Shown piece by piece: positions 28,475-60,806 of a DNA stretch of 64,000 bases (position 1 is its first letter; each line of letters opens with the position of its first letter). The notes beneath the pieces were generated by a model. That model ran no database searches. It was not told the DNA's origin and worked only from the letters and a program-made list of their open reading frames with translations. The stretch lies in the NCBI GenBank assembly GCA_964597925.1, contig CAZQZT010000001.1:13629-77628 (forward strand), written 5' to 3'. This stretch comes from an uncultured Candidatus Saccharibacteria bacterium. Its GTDB lineage: Bacteria; Patescibacteriota; Saccharimonadia; Saccharimonadales; JBBQAJ01. Both the position numbers and the translations under genes were made by a program.

Positions 28475-29233
28475 ATGCAACATTTTCTACTACTATTTAT
28501 ACCTGGCGTCATAGGCGGCATGATAAATGCCATAGCCGGAGGTGGAGGTATCATTATGTACCCTGCGCTTTTAGCATTTGGTTTGCCACCTATCATAGCA
28601 AATACCACTAGTAGTTTTATAGTCTGGCCCGGCAGTCTTACTTCTGCCTACGGATATAGAAGAGATTTGCGGAAAGTTCCCAAAAAGTTTTTGTGGATGG
28701 CTGTACCTTCTGTAACTGGGTCATTAATCGGTGCCTATATATTGATACATACTCCTACTGCAAAGTTTGAGCAGATAGTTCCTTGGCTAATTCTTTCTGC
28801 TGTAATCTTGCTTGCCACACAATCACGCATTCATCGTTTCTTAATGAAACAAACCAAAAAGCGCAAAATTCACTGGCACACTATGCCGTTAATATTGCTT
28901 GCAACGTTTCCCCTCGCTGTTTATGGGGGTTATTTTGGCGCCGGTTTTGGACTTATGATGTTGGCCCTGTTGGGATTTTCTGGATTAAAAAATATATACC
29001 AGATGAATGGCGTAAAAAATCTTGTGGGTGCAACTATGGCCATGACGGCAACCATATACTTTTGGCATAACGGCATGGTTGATTGGTCTGCTGGTCTTAC
29101 TATGGCTTTTGGTACAGCAATTGGTGGTTTTACCGGTGCCCGTCTAACCAAAAAAATCTCTGCACATTTGGTACATGATTTGACAGTAGCAATCGGTCTA
29201 ATAATTGCCATCGTATTGTTGGTGAATTCCTAG
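28475..29233 (+). CDS. TauE/SafE (TSUP) family anion exporter
   Basis: 252 aa, 7-8 TM, GGGGIIMYPALLAFGLPP and GAGFGLMMLALL motifs. TAAAAT box ends 6 nt before the ATG. Confidence 0.75.
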   Translation: MQHFLLLFIPGVIGGMINAIAGGGGIIMYPALLAFGLPPIIANTTSSFIVWPGSLTSAYGYRRDLRKVPKKFLWMAVPSVTGSLIGAYILIHTPTAKFEQIVPWLILSAVILLATQSRIHRFLMKQTKKRKIHWHTMPLILLATFPLAVYGGYFGAGFGLMMLALLGFSGLKNIYQMNGVKNLVGATMAMTATIYFWHNGMVDWSAGLTMAFGTAIGGFTGARLTKKISAHLVHDLTVAIGLIIAIVLLVNS

Positions 29234-29259
29234 TCAACAGATACAAAACATGGTACAAT
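29233..29259 (+). promoter_or_regulatory. Direct repeat R2 / extended -10 promoter for leader RNA plus tRNA
   Basis: GTCAACAGATACAAAACATGGTACAAT with TGGTACAAT at 29251-29259. Starts within the TauE stop codon. Confidence 0.55.
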
Positions 29260-29286
29260 CACCCCTGTCTTCGACCTTCATTTAGG

Positions 29287-29368
29287 AAAAAGAATAGCTC
29301 GGTATGGTCTGCTAAGCAGACTCGGCTTTGCCGACCGAGCGATGATAAAAACCTTTGGTTTGTCTCAT
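29287..29368 (+). ncRNA. Structured leader element, copy 2, ends 5 nt before the tRNA
   Basis: AAAAAGAATA, then GCTCGG...CCGAGC enclosing GTCTGC-taa-GCAGAC and TCGGC-ttt-GCCGA, then GATGATAAAAACC-ttt-GGTTTGTCTCAT. The P2 stem shows a U-A to C-G swap relative to copy 1. Confidence 0.55.
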
Positions 29369-29373
29369 ACCAA

Positions 29374-29450
29374 GGCGGCATAGCTCAGATGGTTAGAGCG
29401 CAGGACTCATAAGCCTGAGGTCACTGGTTCGATCCCAGTTGCCGCTACCA
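29374..29450 (+). tRNA. tRNA with CAU anticodon (elongator Met or Ile2), CCA encoded
   Basis: GGCGGCA / GCTC-AGATGGTTA-GAGC / CAGGA-CTCATAA-GCCTG / AGGTC / ACTGG-TTCGATC-CCAGT / TGCCGCT-A-CCA. G1-U72 wobble and an A31-G39 mismatch. Confidence 0.85.
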
Positions 29451-29459
29451 AAATAAACG

Positions 29460-29485
29460 CCCATCGCAAGATGGGTTTTTGTTTT
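29460..29485 (+). terminator. Rho-independent terminator after the tRNA
   Basis: CCCATC-gcaa-GATGGG then TTTTTGTTTT. Confidence 0.75.
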
Positions 29486-29503
29486 ACTTTGAGCAGTCTG
29501 CAT

Positions 29504-29540
29504 AAAGAGAGTCCCGATTTGCACCGGGACTCTCTTGTTT
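29504..29540. terminator. Strong 12-bp hairpin, probable bidirectional terminator
   Basis: AAGAGAGTCCCG-atttgcac-CGGGACTCTCTT followed by GTTTTC. On the minus strand it follows the micro-ORF ending at 29542. Confidence 0.55.
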
Positions 29541-29541
29541 T

Positions 29542-29640
29542 CTAGGCGCTAATCAAAATCAAGCGTCTTGATTTGACACGACGTAGTTTCAGGTGTTTTC
29601 CACTTGATTTGTTGTACGGTGTGATGTCTTGTATTAACAC
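29542..29640 (-). CDS. Candidate 32-aa basic micro-ORF downstream of leader copy A
   Basis: Minus strand AGGAGG, 10 nt, GTG. Translation MLIQDITPYNKSSGKHLKLRRVKSRRLILISA. Below the ORF-track cutoff. Confidence 0.3.
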   Translation of the reverse strand: MLIQDITPYNKSSGKHLKLRRVKSRRLILISA

Positions 29641-29666
29641 GCTATATTTCCCTCCTTTTTTGGGAA

Positions 29667-29737
29667 GTGAGACAAACTTATGGTTTATCTCATTGCTCAG
29701 AGGAAAATGAAATACATTTGTTCTCTGGCTTCTTTTT
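29667..29737 (-). ncRNA. Structured leader element, copy A (minus strand, short subtype)
   Basis: The reverse complement reads AAAAAGAAGC, then CAGAG-aac-AAATG-tattt-CATTT-tc-CTCTG-AGC, then AATGAGATAAACC-ataa-GTTTGTCTCAC. A U-G wobble replaces the A-G mismatch of the terminal hairpin. Confidence 0.5.
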
Positions 29738-29766
29738 CCCTTTTAGTTTTATGTGTCTATTACGAA

Positions 29767-29862
29767 TTAGTCATTTAGCATGGCATCTATTTGTAATAGT
29801 TGTTCGTCGGTTGTGGGTATTAATTCATACGCCAGTCCCCCATTAAGTGACAATACACTCAC
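29767..29862 (-). CDS. Candidate 31-aa acidic micro-ORF downstream of leader copy B
   Basis: Minus strand AAAGGA, 6 nt, GTG. Translation MSVLSLNGGLAYELIPTTDEQLLQIDAMLND. Confidence 0.3.
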   Translation of the reverse strand: MSVLSLNGGLAYELIPTTDEQLLQIDAMLND

Positions 29863-29882
29863 TAGATTTCCTTTCTACTAAG

Positions 29883-29954
29883 CACGAGACAAACCTTACG
29901 GTTTTTCTCATCGCGCCGGCAAAATGGAATACATTTTGGCGTGCTGCTCTTTTA
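29883..29954 (-). ncRNA. Structured leader element, copy B (minus strand, short subtype)
   Basis: The reverse complement reads AAAAGAGCAGCA, then CGCC-AAAATG-tattc-CATTTT-gcc-GGCG, then ATGAGAAAAACC-gtaa-GGTTTGTCTCGT (GUAA tetraloop). Confidence 0.5.
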
Positions 29955-30021
29955 CCTTATTTATATTTTATGTTTGTTTAGATGAGAAGCGAGACATCCT
30001 TTGCGAGCTGGATTTCTCTAT

Positions 30022-30043
30022 ATAATCTGGTTAACCAGATTAT
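30022..30043. promoter_or_regulatory. Perfect 22-bp palindrome overlapping a TATAAT box
   Basis: ATAATCTGGTTAACCAGATTAT equals its own reverse complement. TATAAT lies at 30021-30026. Confidence 0.5.
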
Positions 30044-30306
30044 TGCTTCCTATCAGAACGAATGTTTGTGTTAAAGCTTCAACACTACGTATTATACATG
30101 ATGTTGCTTGTTTGTCAATATAGTTATACTTACTGCTTACACAAACTTGTTGCTTATGCACCTCTATTGTGCTTAAATACGCATGCAGGTTCCTTATCTG
30201 TTAGGTAACAGTTCGATATGTTCCTTGGTACATGGTGATCAGGCGTTCGATAGTTCGTTAGCAATAAGTGGTCGTACCTGATCATTAATAATAAAGGAAT
30301 ATATAC

Positions 30307-30612
30307 ATGTACAAATTATTTGTAGGTGGTTTACCTTTCAGCACAACCGATGATGAGCTAGCCCAAGTTTTTGGCGCTCACGGTACTGTAGCTAGCGCCA
30401 AAGTCATCACTGACCGCGACACTGGCCGTAGTAAAGGTTTCGGCTTTGTCGAATTCGAAAACGACGAAGAAGGCAAAACAGCTGAAAAGGAACTCAATGG
30501 AAGCGACATGGGTGGCCGTAGCATTACAGTCAACGAAGCGCGTCCAAAAGAGGATCGTCCTCGACGTGACTTCGGTGGCGGCGGTGGCGGCGGTGGAAAC
30601 CGTAGCTGGTAA
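30307..30612 (+). CDS. RRM-type RNA-binding protein with Gly-rich tail
   Basis: RNP2 KLFVGGLPF and RNP1 KGFGFVEF, C-terminal GGGGGGGGNRSW, 101 aa. Confidence 0.9.
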   Translation: MYKLFVGGLPFSTTDDELAQVFGAHGTVASAKVITDRDTGRSKGFGFVEFENDEEGKTAEKELNGSDMGGRSITVNEARPKEDRPRRDFGGGGGGGGNRSW

Positions 30613-30631
30613 TTAATTACCAAACCTAGAA

Positions 30632-30658
30632 AGACTCCCTTTTAGGGAGTCTTTTTTA
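30632..30658 (+). terminator. Rho-independent terminator of the RRM gene
   Basis: AGACTCCC-tttta-GGGAGTCT then TTTTTAT. Confidence 0.8.
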
Positions 30659-30660
30659 TA

Positions 30661-30673
30661 TTAAGCATAAGCT
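30661..30673 (-). repeat. Inverted exact copy of the tRNA-Lys junction core
   Basis: TTAAGCATAAGCT is the reverse complement of AGCTTATGCTTAA at 2663-2675 (13 of 13). Confidence 0.7.
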
Positions 30674-30677
30674 AATG

Positions 30678-30706
30678 TTGACATATATTTGCACAAAAGG
30701 TAAACT
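30678..30706 (+). promoter_or_regulatory. Promoter of the rpf-like gene (about 165-nt leader follows)
   Basis: TTGACA (30678-30683), 17 nt, TAAACT (30701-30706). Confidence 0.55.
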
Positions 30707-30861
30707 AGATTTTCGTGTCTTTTTTGCCTACGCGGGCGCAAAGACATGGACACCTACCTGGACTAACGTCCAACCAAAATAGAATCTAATAACAGTTAAA
30801 CTTACATGCACTCGCTAGCGCGAAGGTATGTAAACCGTTGTGGCTTTTCAGGGGGTTTTAG

Positions 30862-31542
<681 letters not shown>

Positions 31543-31549
31543 CCTAACA

Positions 31550-31578
31550 TTGACAGTTCCACCTCTGTTTGCTAATAT
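31550..31578 (+). promoter_or_regulatory. Promoter of the initiator-like tRNA
   Basis: TTGACA (31550-31555), 17 nt, TAATAT (31573-31578). Confidence 0.6.
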
Positions 31579-31603
31579 GTAGATTCGCTTTTAGCGAACC
31601 TAC

Positions 31604-31678
31604 CGCGGGGTAGAGCAGTGGCAGCTCGTGTGGCTCATAACCACAAGGTCGCAGGTTCGAGTCCTGCCCCCGCTACCA
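31604..31678 (+). tRNA. Initiator-like tRNA-fMet (CAU), CCA encoded
   Basis: CGCGGGG...CCCCGCT-A-CCA gives a 1:72 mismatch (C1/U72) and an A11:U24 pair. Close overall to the E. coli initiator as I recall it. The anticodon stem TGTGG/CCACA has only two G-C pairs next to the loop. Confidence 0.75.
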
Positions 31679-31679
31679 A

Positions 31680-32184
31680 GTGAGAGTTTTTGACCGCTAC
31701 GGCGGTCTTTTTCTTTGGTGCGTATCTGTAAAGCTCGCTTATTTCCGAGGTTCCAAACTGATGGTTAGTTGAGTCATAGACCACACCCCTTGGGAACAAC
31801 ATGCTTTGGAACCTATATTGATTATCCAGGTCGGATGACTTCCACTGTTTGTGTACTTTATGCATAACATTAATAGCCAGCTCTATGTCACTCTCTCGAA
31901 TTTGCTGTTGCTGTTCTAGGCTTTCAAGCTCTGCCGACCTATCTATTTTTTGCTCATCAAGGCTGGCTAAGTATTCGTCTTTCTCACTTTCTGTAATGGT
32001 TCCCTCTATGAATTTATTGACAGCCTTACTTCGTTTTTCAGAAACATCATCCAAGGCTTTTCTAGCTCTCGATATTCGTATGTTCAGATTATCCAACGAT
32101 GCATTAGCCTCTTTTATGAGTACCTGCAACTCCTCAATAAGTATGTTCCAATTCGAATGAACGGTGTTCAAAATTAAGTCATTA
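31680..32184 (-). pseudogene. Large serine recombinase remnant (C-terminal coiled-coil region only)
   Basis: HSNWNILIEELQ...KFIEGTITESEKDEYLASLDEQKIDRSAELESLE...KQWKSSDLDNQYRFQSMLFPRGVVYD resembles the C-terminal third of large serine recombinases. The catalytic N-terminus is absent. ORF 31635..32321 reads through into the tRNA and overlaps the next gene. Confidence 0.55.
31692..31712 (+). terminator. Rho-independent terminator after the tRNA
   Basis: GACCGC-tacg-GCGGTC then TTTTTC. Confidence 0.75.
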
Positions 32185-32187
32185 CTA

Positions 32188-32598
32188 TTAATAGGCTTTT
32201 TGTTGTAGGGGATGGCAATTGATATATAAATCTGACTTTTGATACTCGGCAATTTCTGTTTTTGATGCAAAGTTTTGTAACTTTGGCGTAGATGGATAGG
32301 TATACTTCTCGACGCAAGCATCGTACTTCCACTGATAGTAGTTCTGGCTAGCCCAGCCCCATATGCCTGCTGTTATTGGCAATATAACAAAAGGTATAAG
32401 TATGATAAATACTGCTATCCCGATTTGCTTTTTGCCTCTAGCGTCGCTTATTAAGAATTTTCTTAGTGTTTTGTAAGCTAGAAAAATCATCAGTGCCCAG
32501 AAAGCCAAATACACTATTAATCCTAATACAATGATTAGCGTTGCCTCAGGCGATAGGTTTTCAAATTCCCAATTAGAGCCAGCAAAAATTTTAAACAT
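32188..32598 (-). CDS. Small membrane protein (3 TM), unknown function
   Basis: 136 aa with three hydrophobic helices. Flanked by two copies of a 34-nt recombinase-derived repeat (32128-32161, 32646-32679; 30 of 34 identical). Confidence 0.5.
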   Translation of the reverse strand: MFKIFAGSNWEFENLSPEATLIIVLGLIVYLAFWALMIFLAYKTLRKFLISDARGKKQIGIAVFIILIPFVILPITAGIWGWASQNYYQWKYDACVEKYTYPSTPKLQNFASKTEIAEYQKSDLYINCHPLQQKAY

Positions 32599-32684
32599 TA
32601 GTATGATTGTATCAAAATGCCGACCGAATACCTTTCCACCTAGCTAACTCATCAAGCAGTACGTTCCAATTCGAATGAATCAGG

Positions 32685-32700
32685 GCTACCAAGCATAAGC
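32685..32700 (+). repeat. att-like repeat of the tRNA-fMet 3' end plus inverted junction core
   Basis: GCTACCAAG (32685-32693) equals the last nt of the tRNA plus flank (31671-31679). It overlaps AAGCATAAGC, the reverse complement of GCTTATGCTT from the tRNA-Lys junction. Confidence 0.45.
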
Positions 32701-32754
32701 AGTATGGCTCTCAGAAATGGGAGTCTTTTTTGTTCCCTTTGTTATGATTAGTAG

Positions 32755-33162
32755 ATGAAGAACGATAAATATTTCTTAACGGTCGCTATTGAAGAAGCTA
32801 AGAAAAGTAAATCCCCGCATAAATTTGGAGCGGTAGTTGTTAAAGATGGTGAAATTATTGCTCAAGACTGCAACCACGTACGTGAGATAAATGACCCCTC
32901 AGCCCATGCAGAAATTTCAACAATACGGAAAGCATCGAATATATTGGACAACTACAACATTGATGGATGTGTTCTATATGCAAGTCATGAGCCGTGCTTA
33001 ATGTGCTTTAGTTGTGCGGCTTGGGCAAACATCTCAAGAATTGTATATGCACATCCTGCGTCAGACAGTTCCGAAGATAGTTACGAATTTAAGGGCGTAA
33101 GCTTAAAAGAATTGGCTAAAAAACTAGTAAAGCCTATGGAAGTTGAATTGATACAGGTATAA
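32755..33162 (+). CDS. CMP/dCMP-type zinc deaminase (TadA or guanine-deaminase-like)
   Basis: HAE...PCLMC zinc motifs (SAHAEISTI, SHEPCLMCFSCAAW), 135 aa. TGTTATGAT ends 6 nt before the ATG. Confidence 0.75.
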   Translation: MKNDKYFLTVAIEEAKKSKSPHKFGAVVVKDGEIIAQDCNHVREINDPSAHAEISTIRKASNILDNYNIDGCVLYASHEPCLMCFSCAAWANISRIVYAHPASDSSEDSYEFKGVSLKELAKKLVKPMEVELIQV

Positions 33163-33187
33163 GTTCTAGTCTGCTGTGGTAGAGTAA

Positions 33188-33673
33188 CTTACTACTGATA
33201 CGCCTCCGCCATTAACGAATATTAAATTTAATCCAACTGCAGACGCATATATCAGCCAAGGCTCTATCACCAGCAATTACGGCAGAAACACTACCTTACG
33301 TATTCGTGATGATTCATCAACAGACTACCGCTCATACCTACAATTTAACTTAAGCGGCTTAACCGCAGCACCTAGGTCTGCAAAAATACGACTATACGTC
33401 ACGGACGCCAGTCCAAGCGGAGGAAATATATATCTGACTGGAAATAGTTGGACGGAAGAAGCAATAACTTGGAGTAATGCTCCGTTAGTTGGCGGAACAC
33501 CACTATCAAGCCTTCAGTCAGTTTCTATTGGTTCTTGGGTTGAGTTTGACCTCAAAAATTCAATTACGGGCAACGGCACCTTTAGCTATGCAATATTAAG
33601 TAGCAGTACTAATAGCGCATTGTTTATGAGTAGGGAAGGTCTTTACAAGCCTGAATTGGTCGTAGTTCCATAA
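33188..33673 (+). pseudogene. 5'-truncated DNRLRE (CBM96-like) domain fragment without a start codon
   Basis: Own translation of an open frame with no usable start: ...ADAYISQGSITSNYGRNTTLRIRDDSSTDYRSYLQFNLSGLTAAPRSAKIRLYVTDASPSGGNIYLTGNSWTEEAITWSNAP... Not in the ORF track. Confidence 0.5.
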
Positions 33674-33836
33674 AAACTAAATAATATACTTGATATTACA
33701 GCCTGTTAATACATATTGTTAGTCAGTTTTTTAAATAGTTATGTAGGTTGGGCTACCAAAAACAAAAACTATTGATACTAGTATTTGCTAGATAATAATC
33801 CTATACTTTAAAGCATAACTAAAAAGGTATAGCAAC

Positions 33837-34436
33837 ATGAAAAAACAACAGTCAGGATTTACAGCAGTTGAAATCATAATAGCAGTAGTGGTCATAGGTG
33901 TTCTGGGTATAGTCGGTTGGACAGTTATGGGTCGCAAAAGCACTGAAAGCAAAAATAATGATAAGCCCACTACTGTAATTACCGAAGAATCCGGTGCATG
34001 CTTTGGAGTATCCAAAACAACCGTCAAATCGTTACTAGGAGAACCGGCAAATAACCTGCAAGGTCCAAGTGACACGGGAATAGTAGATATCGGCAAGGGA
34101 GACAAGGCTCAGACATGTGTATATCCATTTGCAGCAGGGGCAACGGCTACCAATAGTTTCACCATAGACCTAGGAACATACGCCAATCAGGCCAATCTGG
34201 ATGCTTCACAAAAATACGTTATCAACGATGGCGGATCTGTAGCGGGGCTGGGCGACAGCGCTAGTTACACAGCCAAAGACGCAGCTATATCAAATAGCAG
34301 AGATTTTGTATTATCTGTTAGACAGGGCCTAAAAATATATACATTCGGTATTAGTCAGCCGACGAATGCGTTGACATACAATGACGCATCAGCACAGCAA
34401 GTACTCATACAAATAGCCCAAGCTGCAACTCTTTAG
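33837..34436 (+). CDS. Type IV pilin / pseudopilin (prepilin N-terminal methylation motif)
   Basis: MKKQQSGFTAVEIIIAVVVIGVLGIVGW: the G/FT-x-E cleavage-methylation site followed by a hydrophobic helix. Confidence 0.85.
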   Translation: MKKQQSGFTAVEIIIAVVVIGVLGIVGWTVMGRKSTESKNNDKPTTVITEESGACFGVSKTTVKSLLGEPANNLQGPSDTGIVDIGKGDKAQTCVYPFAAGATATNSFTIDLGTYANQANLDASQKYVINDGGSVAGLGDSASYTAKDAAISNSRDFVLSVRQGLKIYTFGISQPTNALTYNDASAQQVLIQIAQAATL

Positions 34437-34531
34437 TATTGCTTATCCGCTTCTACTCGTTTATTTCGTTCTTCAAGAAGTTTGATCCTCTTGTTTAAAT
34501 CATCGTTCATTACCTAATGATACAATTTGTT

Positions 34532-34981
34532 CTAGCCTTGACGATGAAAGATAAAGTCCATCCATTCCGAGAAGTTTTTTTGGTAACTCGGCCTATCATC
34601 AGGTAGTGAAGTTTGGGGTTTTACCGTGGTTTCTGGAATTTCTTTGGCATAGACTAGGGCGATGCTTTTGGGAACTAGAAGTAGTGTTTCTCCGGGTGCA
34701 CCCTTCCCCAGCTGCTTTCGTGCGGTCAGCTCTAGAAATGTGTCGCTCTTGTAGTATTCGTTCCGTAAGCTTAGGTTACTGTTCGTAAGCTCCTGGAGTT
34801 TATTTTGCTGATCTAATTGAGCAATCTGTTTTTGTAGCTCATAGTTGGTTTCTATAACGGCCACGCCACTCCAGGTAGCCAGTATAACCATAACGCCAAA
34901 CACTACGAACCCCAGAACGCGAACATCACGCAGATTGTGCCAGGCTGGGTTTTTTGATAGCGTTTTGATTTTATTGAACAT
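34532..34981 (-). CDS. Septum formation initiator FtsB/DivIC family protein
   Basis: N-terminal TM, then coiled coil YELQKQIAQLDQQNKLQELTNSNLSLRNEYYKSDTFLELTARKQLG. Confidence 0.75.
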   Translation of the reverse strand: MFNKIKTLSKNPAWHNLRDVRVLGFVVFGVMVILATWSGVAVIETNYELQKQIAQLDQQNKLQELTNSNLSLRNEYYKSDTFLELTARKQLGKGAPGETLLLVPKSIALVYAKEIPETTVKPQTSLPDDRPSYQKNFSEWMDFIFHRQG

Positions 34982-35147
34982 TTACAAATCTATTATAGCA
35001 AGTCAGCACAAGTATGGTGGCAGTGTGGAAATATAGCGCCTGCGCTCATACAGTTCGGTTCTAGCCAGAACCAAAAAAATAAGAATCCCGCCTTGCGATG
35101 AGACTTTGATTTTGGTGGACTTGGATGGAACGTTTTGAAATCAAGTA

Positions 35148-35223
35148 TGGTGGGGGTGGTAGGAATCGAACCTACTACCAAGTGGTTATGAGCCGCCTGC
35201 TCTAACCGATGAGCTACACCCCC
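35148..35223 (-). tRNA. tRNA with CAU anticodon (Ile2-like or elongator Met), CCA encoded
   Basis: The reverse complement reads GGGGGTG / GCTC-ATCGGTTA-GAGC / GGCGG-CTCATAA-CCACT / TGGTA / GTAGG-TTCGATT-CCTAC / CACCCCC-A-CCA. The anticodon arm resembles E. coli tRNA-Ile2 as I recall it. ORF 34993..35274 is an artefact over it. Confidence 0.85.
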
Positions 35224-35293
35224 GTCGTTGAAACCTACAACACTGCCTTGTTTTGGCTTAGCTGCAGTTAGCAAGCTAACAGATGTGAGTATA

Positions 35294-35806
35294 TCAGATT
35301 AGCGACAACATGACAGTAGCCATGACAAACATTAGGAGATCTTCCACAAAACTAATTTTAGATAGCGGCAGACGAATCACAGTACCCAAGCAAGCACACA
35401 TGATATCTGACCTGCTACGCAGCTCTTTAATGACGCCTACACTAGCAACACCTGTAACTAATACAGTAACGACGTGTAAACCCACTGTTTCTGAAATCAA
35501 CAGATAGGCGAAGCCTAAGCCCAGTTCAACAAAAGGAAATATGTATCCCCAAACTGGGAACTTTTTTGTAATGATGTCATAGCCCTTGTACGTAATTGCA
35601 AAAGTTTGGAGATTTACCAATTTAAAAACCGCAAAGGTTATAAAAAATAGACCCATAAAATCACTCATGAACTGGTTGAGACCCCAGCCACTCCACAGAG
35701 TCAATGCCGTACTTGCGACTATAATTGTACTGATTACTAAACCGAATTTTAGATACTCACGGGCTGATTCCTGCGGACGTATGTGCGAGCTGTGGTCATG
35801 TTGCAT
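35294..35806 (-). CDS. MauE/DoxX-like membrane protein
   Basis: 170 aa, 4-5 TM, with a CACLG motif resembling the CxCFG of MauE-type proteins. Weak assignment. Confidence 0.4.
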   Translation of the reverse strand: MQHDHSSHIRPQESAREYLKFGLVISTIIVASTALTLWSGWGLNQFMSDFMGLFFITFAVFKLVNLQTFAITYKGYDIITKKFPVWGYIFPFVELGLGFAYLLISETVGLHVVTVLVTGVASVGVIKELRSRSDIMCACLGTVIRLPLSKISFVEDLLMFVMATVMLSLI

Positions 35807-35815
35807 GCAACTATT

Positions 35816-36805
35816 CTACAACTCTGCAAGAAAATAAAGCAATTTATCGGTGCTATCGGCAGACATAAGTTTTTCTCGGAGTTTTACTGCGCCGTCGAAG
35901 CCCTGAATGTAGATTTTGCAGAATTTATTTAGGGTTATTACTTTTCGTTCGTTGTTTTGCCAAGTCTTTTCGAACAACTCAACGTGCTGGCGATATAGGT
36001 CAGTCTTTTGCTCTGGAGTGTAGTCTGCCCATGGCGAGTCCTTGGCAAACACAAATGGGTCATCAAACACACCTCTGCCAATCATGATTCCATCCAATGA
36101 ATACTGAGCGGCTAGTTTTAAGCCATGATCATGAGTAGCGACATCACCGTTGCCAATTATTTTAGTAGTCGGAGAGAGCTTATCTCTCAGCTCTCTAATT
36201 TCACCTATTTTATTCCAGTCGGCTGGGACTTTGCTCATTTGAGATTTGGTTCGACCATGAATAGTTAACGCACTAAGATTTTGCTGTAGCAAAAGTTCAT
36301 GCCAAGTCAGGTCTACCGTACTATAGCCTAGACGGGTTTTTACAGAAACGGGGAGGGAGGGAGCGCCTTCTTTGCAGGCCTGAATCATTGCTACTGCCCT
36401 GCCCCTGTTTTCTGGCAATATAAGTGCCGAACACGTGCCGTTTTGAACTTCAGATTTGGCCGGACAGCCCATGTTTAGATCGATACCTGCAAAGTTTATG
36501 CCCTCAGGTAAGCCAAGTTCTTTTGCCAAAGACCCGTCAGCAATTTGCCGCGCCACGTCATAGAAACTTTCTGGATTTTTACCCCACACCTGAGCTATGA
36601 GTGGTCTCTCTATATCTGTAAATACCAGTTTGGGCAAAGTTTTTGGCCTGCCGGCACTTTGCAGTGCCTCTACATTTACAAACTCAGTAAAAAACAGGTC
36701 TGGTGCAGCCGTACTGGCAATAATCTGTCTAAACACAGTGTCAGTAACGTCATCCATAGGCGCCAATACAAAAAAAGGCTCCGGTAACTTATCCCAAATA
36801 TTCAT
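35816..36805 (-). CDS. dus: tRNA-dihydrouridine synthase
   Basis: FFVLAPMDDVTDTVFRQI, NMGCP, HGRT; a Dus family TIM barrel. Confidence 0.9.
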   Translation of the reverse strand: MNIWDKLPEPFFVLAPMDDVTDTVFRQIIASTAAPDLFFTEFVNVEALQSAGRPKTLPKLVFTDIERPLIAQVWGKNPESFYDVARQIADGSLAKELGLPEGINFAGIDLNMGCPAKSEVQNGTCSALILPENRGRAVAMIQACKEGAPSLPVSVKTRLGYSTVDLTWHELLLQQNLSALTIHGRTKSQMSKVPADWNKIGEIRELRDKLSPTTKIIGNGDVATHDHGLKLAAQYSLDGIMIGRGVFDDPFVFAKDSPWADYTPEQKTDLYRQHVELFEKTWQNNERKVITLNKFCKIYIQGFDGAVKLREKLMSADSTDKLLYFLAEL

Positions 36806-40652: not shown

Positions 40653-40728
40653 CTTTGTTTCCTTGTTTAGGAAGAGTAGTCTGCTGCGACTATACGATGA
40701 GAGACCCGCATGGGGTCTCTCATTATGA

Positions 40729-60550: not shown

Positions 60551-60806
60551 ATAAAAACCCTCGCTCTCCGGGAGCAAGGGTATGAATGTCTTCATTGCTC
60601 CTGCTCGGGAGACTTTACCTGCTGTATCGGGCTTTAACCGTTGCGGCACAGCGCGAGAATTACACTCACTTCCAGCATTTTTTATTAAAAAGAACTTATT
60701 TAGAGTGTACCACAACCCTGGCTACGCTATATGTAGTATTTTTAGAAGATATTTTTATACTATGTGTGCTTTTTACCATATATCGACTCTTATCATAAAG
60801 TTTCTG

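Follow-up and report, generated by a model that had tools for sequence, protein, structure and literature searches.

Why should an RNA element that sits in front of tRNA genes recur before two micro-open reading frames (micro-ORFs)? The locus that raises this question lies in a 64,000-nucleotide (64-kb) stretch of an uncultured Candidatus Saccharibacteria bacterium, hereafter the window, in the 856-nucleotide (nt) gap between the elongator tRNA-Met gene (29374–29450, plus strand) and an RRM gene (30307–30612, plus strand). On the minus strand this gap holds, in order, a promoter, one copy of the element (copy B), micro-ORF B (ORF-B), a second copy (copy A), micro-ORF A (ORF-A) and a hairpin. 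An earlier reading of the DNA from its letters alone, here the original prediction, had the shared leader driving or regulating an acidic/basic pair of micro-proteins, perhaps of toxin/antidote type. Our analysis favours a different answer: copies A and B belong to a family of ~75-nt structured repeats, apparently not previously described, and probably represent a mobile, co-transcribed leader/spacer cassette inserted into a pre-existing micro-gene operon, not a dedicated regulator.

A class-wide family of structured repeats

The element is laid out as GGGAAAAGAGCAG-P1-CGAUGAGAAAAACC-loop-GGUUUGUCUCAU and has three parts: a 5' tail rich in purines (GGGAAAAGAGCAG), a P1 helix whose sequence is free and which encloses one or two hairpins, and P2, a 12-bp hairpin (AUGAGAAAAACC/GGUUUGUCUCAU) with an A-G mismatch. 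Scanning one genome per species with a pattern for the 3' half only (ATGAKAWAAACC N2-6 GTTTGTCTC) gave at least 119 matching loci, nearly all from Candidatus Saccharibacteria/Saccharimonadia, which itself places the window in a Saccharibacteria (TM7) genome; ~119 of the 127 matches listed are true copies, with up to three of the matches listed falling within one 8-kb locus. The family thus comprises well over 100 copies and is class-wide in Saccharimonadia. The 5' block GGGAAAAGAGCAG(C), which lies outside the search pattern, is nearly invariant (1.2–2 bits per column). Invariant nucleotides, some 25 in number, cluster in the tail, junction and P2, and the peripheral stems are free in sequence.

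Both helices are maintained at the RNA level. P1 covaries at five of five pairs, with 55 double-change cells in a 115-copy alignment against 11 expected, a value reached in 0 of 500 shuffles. The invariance of P2 is built in by the search pattern, so its support comes from divergent copies, where compensatory changes keep it paired (40669–40725 of the window; loci L096, L107 and L029; the tRNA-Met leader of L142, UUGAAGGAAAACC/GGUUGUCCUUCAA). In many copies P2 is followed by a GCGAAGC/GGCGAAGCC mini-hairpin (positions 694–708 of L079; L067, L111 and L070), which in the minimal pre-23S copy of L105 replaces P1; as DNA, GCGAAGC forms an exceptionally stable mini-hairpin.

Running a covariance model (R1), built from 115 copies in other genomes, on the window returned four to five copies, and its scores support the earlier proposal that one element is common to the tRNA leaders and to both micro-ORF leaders. 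Copy B (29882–29956, minus strand; 68.3 bits, E 4.6e-15) has the 5' tail AGGUAAAAGAGCAG, a P1 enclosing the inner hairpin AAAAUGUAUUCCAUUUU, and a P2 of AUGAGAAAAACC/GGUUUGUCUCGU. Copy A (29665–29741, minus strand; 54.5 bits, E 1.1e-11) has the tail GGGAAAAAGAAGCC, a P1 of CAGAG/CUCUG with an inner hairpin, and a P2 with a U-G wobble (AUGAGAUAAACC/GUUUGUCUCA) that, as predicted, can pair only in minus-strand RNA. Folding reproduces the outer helix, single inner hairpin and terminal hairpin described for both (z-scores -3.0 to -5.7). Two longer copies on the plus strand adopt a three-way-junction form, with two inner hairpins instead of one: c1 (2497–2582, 55.9 bits) stands just before tRNA-Lys(UUU) (2584–2659) and c2 (29285–29370, 50.7 bits) just before the elongator tRNA-Met. 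The other two CAU tRNAs of the window lack the element. A weak, divergent orphan copy (40669–40725, plus strand; 23 bits, E 5e-4) keeps P2 pairing (AUGAGAGACCC/GGGUCUCUCAU); it is preceded by a TCCGGATTTACTCCGGA hairpin resembling the inner hairpins of other copies, with no same-strand gene downstream.

An Rfam 15 scan of the whole window at the gathering threshold found only four tRNAs and an AdoCbl-II riboswitch, leaving the element unmatched. In a scan of 28500–36500 at E<=10 the element drew nothing but noise, namely Gut-1 on the opposite strand, with 22 bits where the gathering score is 50. BLAST against plasmids returned no match or tRNA matches only, and a full-text literature search found no description of the element.

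A micro-gene operon that persists without the repeats

A direct check of the 856-nt gap located every feature that had been described, and the functional strand is the minus strand, as proposed. One feature absent from the original prediction is a sigma-70 promoter ~130 nt upstream of copy B (TTGACA-16-TATAAT, 30118..30091, minus strand), which matches the consensus at 12 of 12 positions and aligns with that of the closest relative, locus L130 (RRM 92% identical). ORF-B (29767–29862, minus strand; GTG at 29862) follows a Shine-Dalgarno (SD) sequence, AAAGGA (29869–29874), after a 6-nt spacer and runs for 31 codons plus a stop, specifying an acidic product; ORF-A (29542–29640, minus strand; GTG at 29640) follows AGGAGG (29651–29656) after 10 nt and runs for 32 codons plus a stop, specifying a basic one. 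A 12-bp hairpin (29505–29536), homologous in position to the L130 terminator, closes the operon. Conserved promoter, ORF-B, ORF-A and terminator hairpin would make 29542–30118 (minus strand) one transcription unit; in the window lineage it contains two repeats, copy B within the 5' leader and copy A separating the two cistrons.

We gathered 80 related metagenome loci via the RRM protein. In ~28 of them tblastn detected ORF-B upstream of the RRM gene on the minus strand, in divergent orientation and conserved synteny. ORF-B is a real, conserved gene for a small acidic protein (~26–31 amino acids), because the frame is open in 20 of 20 aligned homologues (M..LAYELLPTTDE.ILAID.VL.E), both alternative frames hold stops in nearly every locus, and the codon-position entropies of the 20 sequences (1.25/0.84/1.63) are a coding signature. 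In most of the related loci a TTGACA-17-TGTATAAT promoter can be recognised, together with a leader rich in A. Other structures also occur in ORF-B leaders: L132 and L139 carry a different structured insert (shared ..AATCTGATTGC..ACGGGGCA(G/A)G), and L147 a further GC-rich hairpin, ending ..GGGCAGGC.

The gene status of ORF-A is plausible on two sequences, its sole homologue being that of L130 (MLIQDIITKPSKSRRKLRLRGRAITIASP), with the same length and the same place before the terminator. On the conservation check that had been called for, ORF-B is conserved and ORF-A has a single homologue. Outside the window lineage and L130, ORF-B is monocistronic, and ORF-A is missing from most ORF-B loci. 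For a toxin/antidote pair we found no evidence: the micro-ORFs have no match in Pfam (PADLOC was not searched), ORF-A is basic and not hydrophobic, and most relatives carry ORF-B alone.

The element is present in none of the 21 related ORF-B leaders inspected, and the covariance model, run over the 80 RRM-linked loci, found four copies, all at tRNAs and none before ORF-B; a profile search likewise placed it solely at tRNA genes. L130 has both ORFs and the terminator without any copy at the locus. It aligns with the window from promoter to terminator except for three window-specific blocks: a leader segment of ~80 nt with the perfect hairpin AATAATCTGGTTAACCAGATTAT (29975..30052, bounds approximate, minus strand), copy B, and copy A, which is absent from the L130 ORF-B/ORF-A spacer. 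Several syntenic tRNA-Met genes are also without the element, the promoter leading straight into the tRNA. Broken ORFs beside persisting RNA elements had been named as the outcome that would refute the original prediction; the relatives present the reverse, with ORFs that persist and elements that do not. The notion that the leader drives or regulates the micro-proteins fares no better, as transcription is supplied by the conserved sigma-70 promoter. Since the ORF-B and ORF-A leaders inspected in relatives are without the element, copies A and B most simply look like lineage-specific insertions.

A riboswitch would be retained with its gene in orthologous loci; the 21 leaders, L130 and the covariance search give the opposite result. 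No expression platform is apparent either: no U-tract follows P2, and SD pairing occurs in copy A only. There, the predicted UUCCC/GGGAA pairing is present in the minimum-free-energy fold of a longer context, but it is a weak 5-bp helix that competes with the element's own 5' GGGAA. The UUCCC that follows copy A, and no other copy, can pair with GGGAA of either the tail or the SD region. Unlike a translation-controlling leader, many family members precede untranslated RNAs.

Copies before stable RNAs and inside translation operons

Of the 127 copies listed, 44 sit 5–17 nt before tRNA genes with 20 different anticodons. Upstream of these lies a TATAAT-N2-CCTCTGTT promoter at variable distance, so the element is a transcribed leader and not a promoter. 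Stable-RNA promoters in these genomes (for example, L056, L069, L092, L119 and 29254–29259 of the window) share TATAAT with NNCCTCTGTT after it, which forms a conserved discriminator or initial transcribed region.

Copies linked to rRNA end 6–22 nt before 16S (L070), 5S (L040, L079) and 23S (L105, L096), the pre-23S copies being minimal 49-nt forms. In L079, the module AUUAGGCGAAGCCGC exactly fills the stretch from the element to position 1 of the 5S model; in L070, the 15 nt that precede 16S model position 1 are taken up by a comparable mini-hairpin module and a few more bases. A copy also closes an insertion of ~125 nt at the tip of 23S helix 25 in three loci (L065, L073, L084). Aligned to the large-subunit rRNA model, L065 departs from it after position 583 and returns to 23S sequence directly behind the ...GUCUCAU with which the insertion closes. 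We left out L007, where the element stands at a break in 23S, since this contig could be a chimera joined at the repeat. Two antisense arrangements were seen at 23S: a copy abutting its 3' end in L110 (317–391), and in L096 (265–316) an antisense partial copy together with a sense copy inside a 23S 5'-domain insertion. Such sense/antisense pairs could form long processing stems.

Most remaining copies lie 10–35 nt before start codons inside operons, at rpsG, rplD, rplB, rplN, rpsN, rplP, rpsQ, rplM, rpsI, rplK, rplJ, rplV, rpsR, ssb, tuf, tsf, rpoC and a few others; of the 36 mRNA-linked copies that could be assigned with confidence, roughly 25 stand before genes of translation or transcription. 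More than half (19 of 35 mRNA-linked copies) fall within a 'bridge' ORF of ~35 codons (for example, L063, L025, L038, L080, L087 and L124). This begins 12–22 nt upstream of the element, often at a TAATG overlapping the stop codon of the gene before it, and ends at the downstream ATG, an arrangement which suggests that translational coupling is kept across the insert.

Signatures of mobility

Presence or absence of the element differs between orthologous sites, and some copies carry the marks of insertion. Host direct repeats above the 99th percentile of controls flank 16 of 102 copies, against 2 of 204 controls, with exact runs of 12–50 nt in 11 of the 16 (control maximum, 9). The inserts are laid out as repeat, x (4–28 nt), element, y (5–19 nt), repeat, and the y module AUUAGGCGAAGCCGC that adjoins 5S in L079 also terminates the inserted unit in L067 and L111. 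The duplicated host sequence is either the 3' end of a gene (L044, L050, L035, L074) or an SD, ATG and first codons (L067, L111, L031), and both flanking genes therefore remain intact. Decayed repeats (SD...TAATG on both sides) are common in ribosomal-protein operons.

Nearly all copies above the controls' 95th percentile (19 of 20) are non-tRNA copies, a skew that points to stable-RNA leaders as the ancestral sites. Of 14 repeat-bearing copies, about 4 lie antisense to host genes (tpiA, msrA); those free of flanking repeats appear mostly sense-oriented. Orthologous rplJ sites in L062 and L093 have common flanks and different inner hairpins, a pattern that suggests gene conversion.

Weighing the explanations

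The cassette reading, which we hold to be probably correct, would run as follows. The element would have its home immediately 5' of mature 16S, 23S and 5S rRNA and of many tRNAs, in their leaders and spacers, and would have spread from there, with long and variable target duplications, to cistron junctions (mostly of translation genes), to 23S helix tips and to the micro-ORF operon. Co-transcribed with its neighbours, it would act as a self-folding, removable leader or spacer, either trimmed off, on the model of pre-rRNA and pre-tRNA, or at least without effect on the start site downstream, and would not switch the micro-ORFs. Sense copies would be tolerated or useful and antisense copies purged.

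Several points weigh against this account. Neither copy A nor copy B is itself flanked by a significant duplication, and insertion there is deduced from one close relative and from more distant ones, with loss as the alternative. A crude motif scan (YxDD plus [IV]PK for reverse transcriptase) of the window and 1.1 Mb of fetched loci, which include no complete genome, found no reverse transcriptase or transposase. The core is near-identical at apparently old orthologous sites (rpsG, rplD), where flanking repeats have decayed, which argues for a host-level function of the family; together with the bias to translation genes, this invariance suggests such a function, perhaps as a maturation platform, a site bound by a global factor or an antitermination signal. 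What the element does at the molecular level we only infer.

Host function is taken further by an explanation that we regard as unlikely: a regulatory or processing signal common to a regulon of rRNA, tRNA, ribosomal-protein and micro-ORF genes and bound by one trans-acting factor. This could be an RNase, an RNA-binding protein (for example, the neighbouring RRM protein) or a Nus-type complex, coordinating synthesis of the translation apparatus or 5'-end maturation, and arrival at new genes would be adaptive recruitment. The preference of mRNA-linked copies for translation and transcription genes would follow, as would the occurrence of a copy before each of 16S, 23S and 5S in some locus, the invariance of the core both class-wide and at likely orthologous old sites, and the sense orientation of the majority. 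The tail can often pair with a pyrimidine run just upstream in a P0 helix (mean -7.2 kcal/mol against -5.5 kcal/mol in controls, p 5e-5), a signal that is significant but confined to about one-third of copies, and the tail holds AAAGAGCA, the reverse complement of the boxA core. A purely regulatory motif would not be expected to show target duplications or antisense copies, however, and presence is patchy at orthologous tRNA-Met and ORF-B sites; nor is there a consistent expression platform, SD pairing being weak and restricted to copy A.

A rather improbable extension of mobility is that the element is a bacterial retroposon resembling a short interspersed element (SINE), in which leader and spacer RNAs from rRNA and tRNA maturation would be copied back into the chromosome. 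Long variable duplications combined with a defined 3' end resemble target-primed retroposition. Such a process would explain the duplications, a precise 3' end at the former boundary of a mature RNA and a variable 5' end; sense copies would then be kept as a common leader cassette before translation-apparatus genes, sometimes bridged by a small coupling ORF.

We consider it improbable that the element is a self-cleaving ribozyme, or directs its own excision, so as to free downstream RNAs and be harmless wherever inserted, 23S rRNA included. Its ~25 invariant nucleotides amid peripheral stems of free sequence would suit such an activity, as would its placement right on the 5' boundary of mature RNAs and at helix 25, a known site of excised 23S intervening sequences. 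No Rfam ribozyme class is similar at E<10, however, and the mature 5' end may lie anywhere from 5 to 22 nt away.

Last, a riboswitch-like or SD-occluding leader dedicated to a toxin/antidote pair now seems highly unlikely and is largely refuted by the comparative data: for all that a strong SD and ORF directly follow each copy, that ORF-B is conserved and that the copy A UUCCC has alternative partners, both ORFs and the promoter stand without the element in L130, as does ORF-B in ~20 other loci, ORF-A is missing from most relatives and hence no obligate pair exists, most family members precede untranslated RNAs and Pfam gives no match.

Other identities were tried and rejected. A cyanobacterial origin, at first suggested by the RRM gene and GC content, or a Yfr/NsiR-type small RNA is ruled out by genome-scan matches that are nearly all Saccharibacteria; a promoter, by -10 boxes 20–45 nt upstream at variable distance and by the covarying stems; and a protein-coding mini-gene as the primary constraint, by the 3–6-nt range of the P2 loop, P1 covariation and the lack of a start codon in copies before tRNAs and rRNAs. 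A hammerhead-like core (GAUGAG...GAAA) has its elements in the wrong order and no Rfam match. A purine triplex between the tail (GAAAAGAG) and its P2 mirror image (GAGAAAAA) is contradicted by variant copies in the window, which show no mirror-sense co-variation.

Relation to known systems

Closest among known systems come 23S intervening sequences and bacterial non-autonomous repeats, with SINEs as an analogy; the element fits none of these definitions fully. Intervening sequences at helices 25 and 45 of 23S rRNA are excised by RNase III in, for example, Salmonella, Leptospira and Coxiella. The insertions of ~125 nt at the helix 25 tip in L065, L073 and L084 are alike in position (a likeness that applies to those copies and not to A or B), and the element is similarly short, ORF-free and sporadic among lineages. 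In Saccharibacteria, 64 of 66 rRNA insertions are short (<=250 bp), without introns or homing-endonuclease genes (PMC11270868). Unlike intervening sequences, the same element sequence also stands before tRNAs, 16S, 23S, 5S and mRNA cistrons, is not a simple long stem-loop, and has a core that is invariant across the whole class.

With MITEs (miniature transposable elements bearing inverted repeats), Correia/NEMIS, REP/BIME, ERIC and RUP/BOX, the element shares being multi-copy, non-coding, hairpin-forming and, presumably, co-transcribed with its neighbours, and the family shows the insertion polymorphism and flanking duplications of bacterial non-autonomous repeats. It differs from MITEs in lacking terminal inverted repeats, as the consensus 5' end (GGGAAAAGAGCAG) and 3' end (GGUUUGUCUCAU) are not reverse complements, and in duplications that are long and variable (exact runs of 12–50 nt), not short and fixed. 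It differs from non-autonomous repeats generally in its strong bias to the 5' side of genes in sense orientation, its class-wide core and its covarying stems.

SINEs and processed retropseudogenes offer the parallel of a small, structured, RNA-derived unit with target duplications of variable length (~11 clear cases here, for which a DNA-level mechanism is possible), and of a defined 3' boundary (the AUUAGGCGAAGCCGC module in L079, L067 and L111) with a 5' extension that varies from 4 to 28 nt. In contrast to SINEs, the element has no A-tail and no internal promoter has been shown; the crude motif scan returned no reverse transcriptase, and the host is a bacterium. We know of no SINE-like element described in bacteria.

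The boxA/boxB/boxC and phage put/nut signals are comparable in that the element lies in the rRNA operon leader and internal spacers and combines hairpins with a conserved single-stranded block. Instead of the boxA consensus UGCUCUUUAACAA, however, its sense strand has GAAAAGAGCAG, in which the boxA core is present as its complement; a boxA-like GCUCUUU occurs only as the variable upstream partner in P0, in a minority of copies. Unlike boxA, the element is found before 5S rRNA, single tRNAs and operon-internal cistrons as well.

Neighbouring features and significance

Two further RNA features of the window were noted. The 5' untranslated region of the RRM gene (30120–30306, plus strand; ~190 nt) has blocks conserved in 16 related loci (GTGCTTTAAT..CAGGTTCTTATCTGTTC..GTTCGA..CCTTGG..AGTTCG..GGGGTCGTNCCTAG) with no Rfam match; its outer helix appears to covary (CAGGT/ACCTG against TAGGA/TCCTA), and the region may serve the RRM gene as an autoregulatory leader. 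An AdoCbl-II (cobalamin) riboswitch (60614–60689, minus strand), which scores 41.7 bits and so exceeds the Rfam gathering score, lies upstream of a large minus-strand ORF. Three independent assemblies of the window strain (L003–L005) are 100% identical, and their contigs begin at approximately 29381–29401 of the window, inside tRNA-Met just past c2; these starts may be an assembly break due to the repeat.

Saccharibacteria are the best-studied bacteria of the candidate phyla radiation, and to our knowledge almost nothing is known of their RNA biology. Extremely conserved, present before most ribosomal-protein cistrons and still inserting, with long target duplications, the element would be either a new kind of genome-wide leader/processing cassette or a new kind of bacterial mobile element, and both readings are testable in cultivable, naturally transformable strains. 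It may account for some of the short, unexplained rRNA insertions of Saccharibacteria and may explain some assembly breaks, the contigs of the window strain breaking near c2. A by-product of the analysis is a conserved protein of ~26 amino acids adjoining the RRM gene, and the covariance model can be used to annotate Saccharibacteria genomes.

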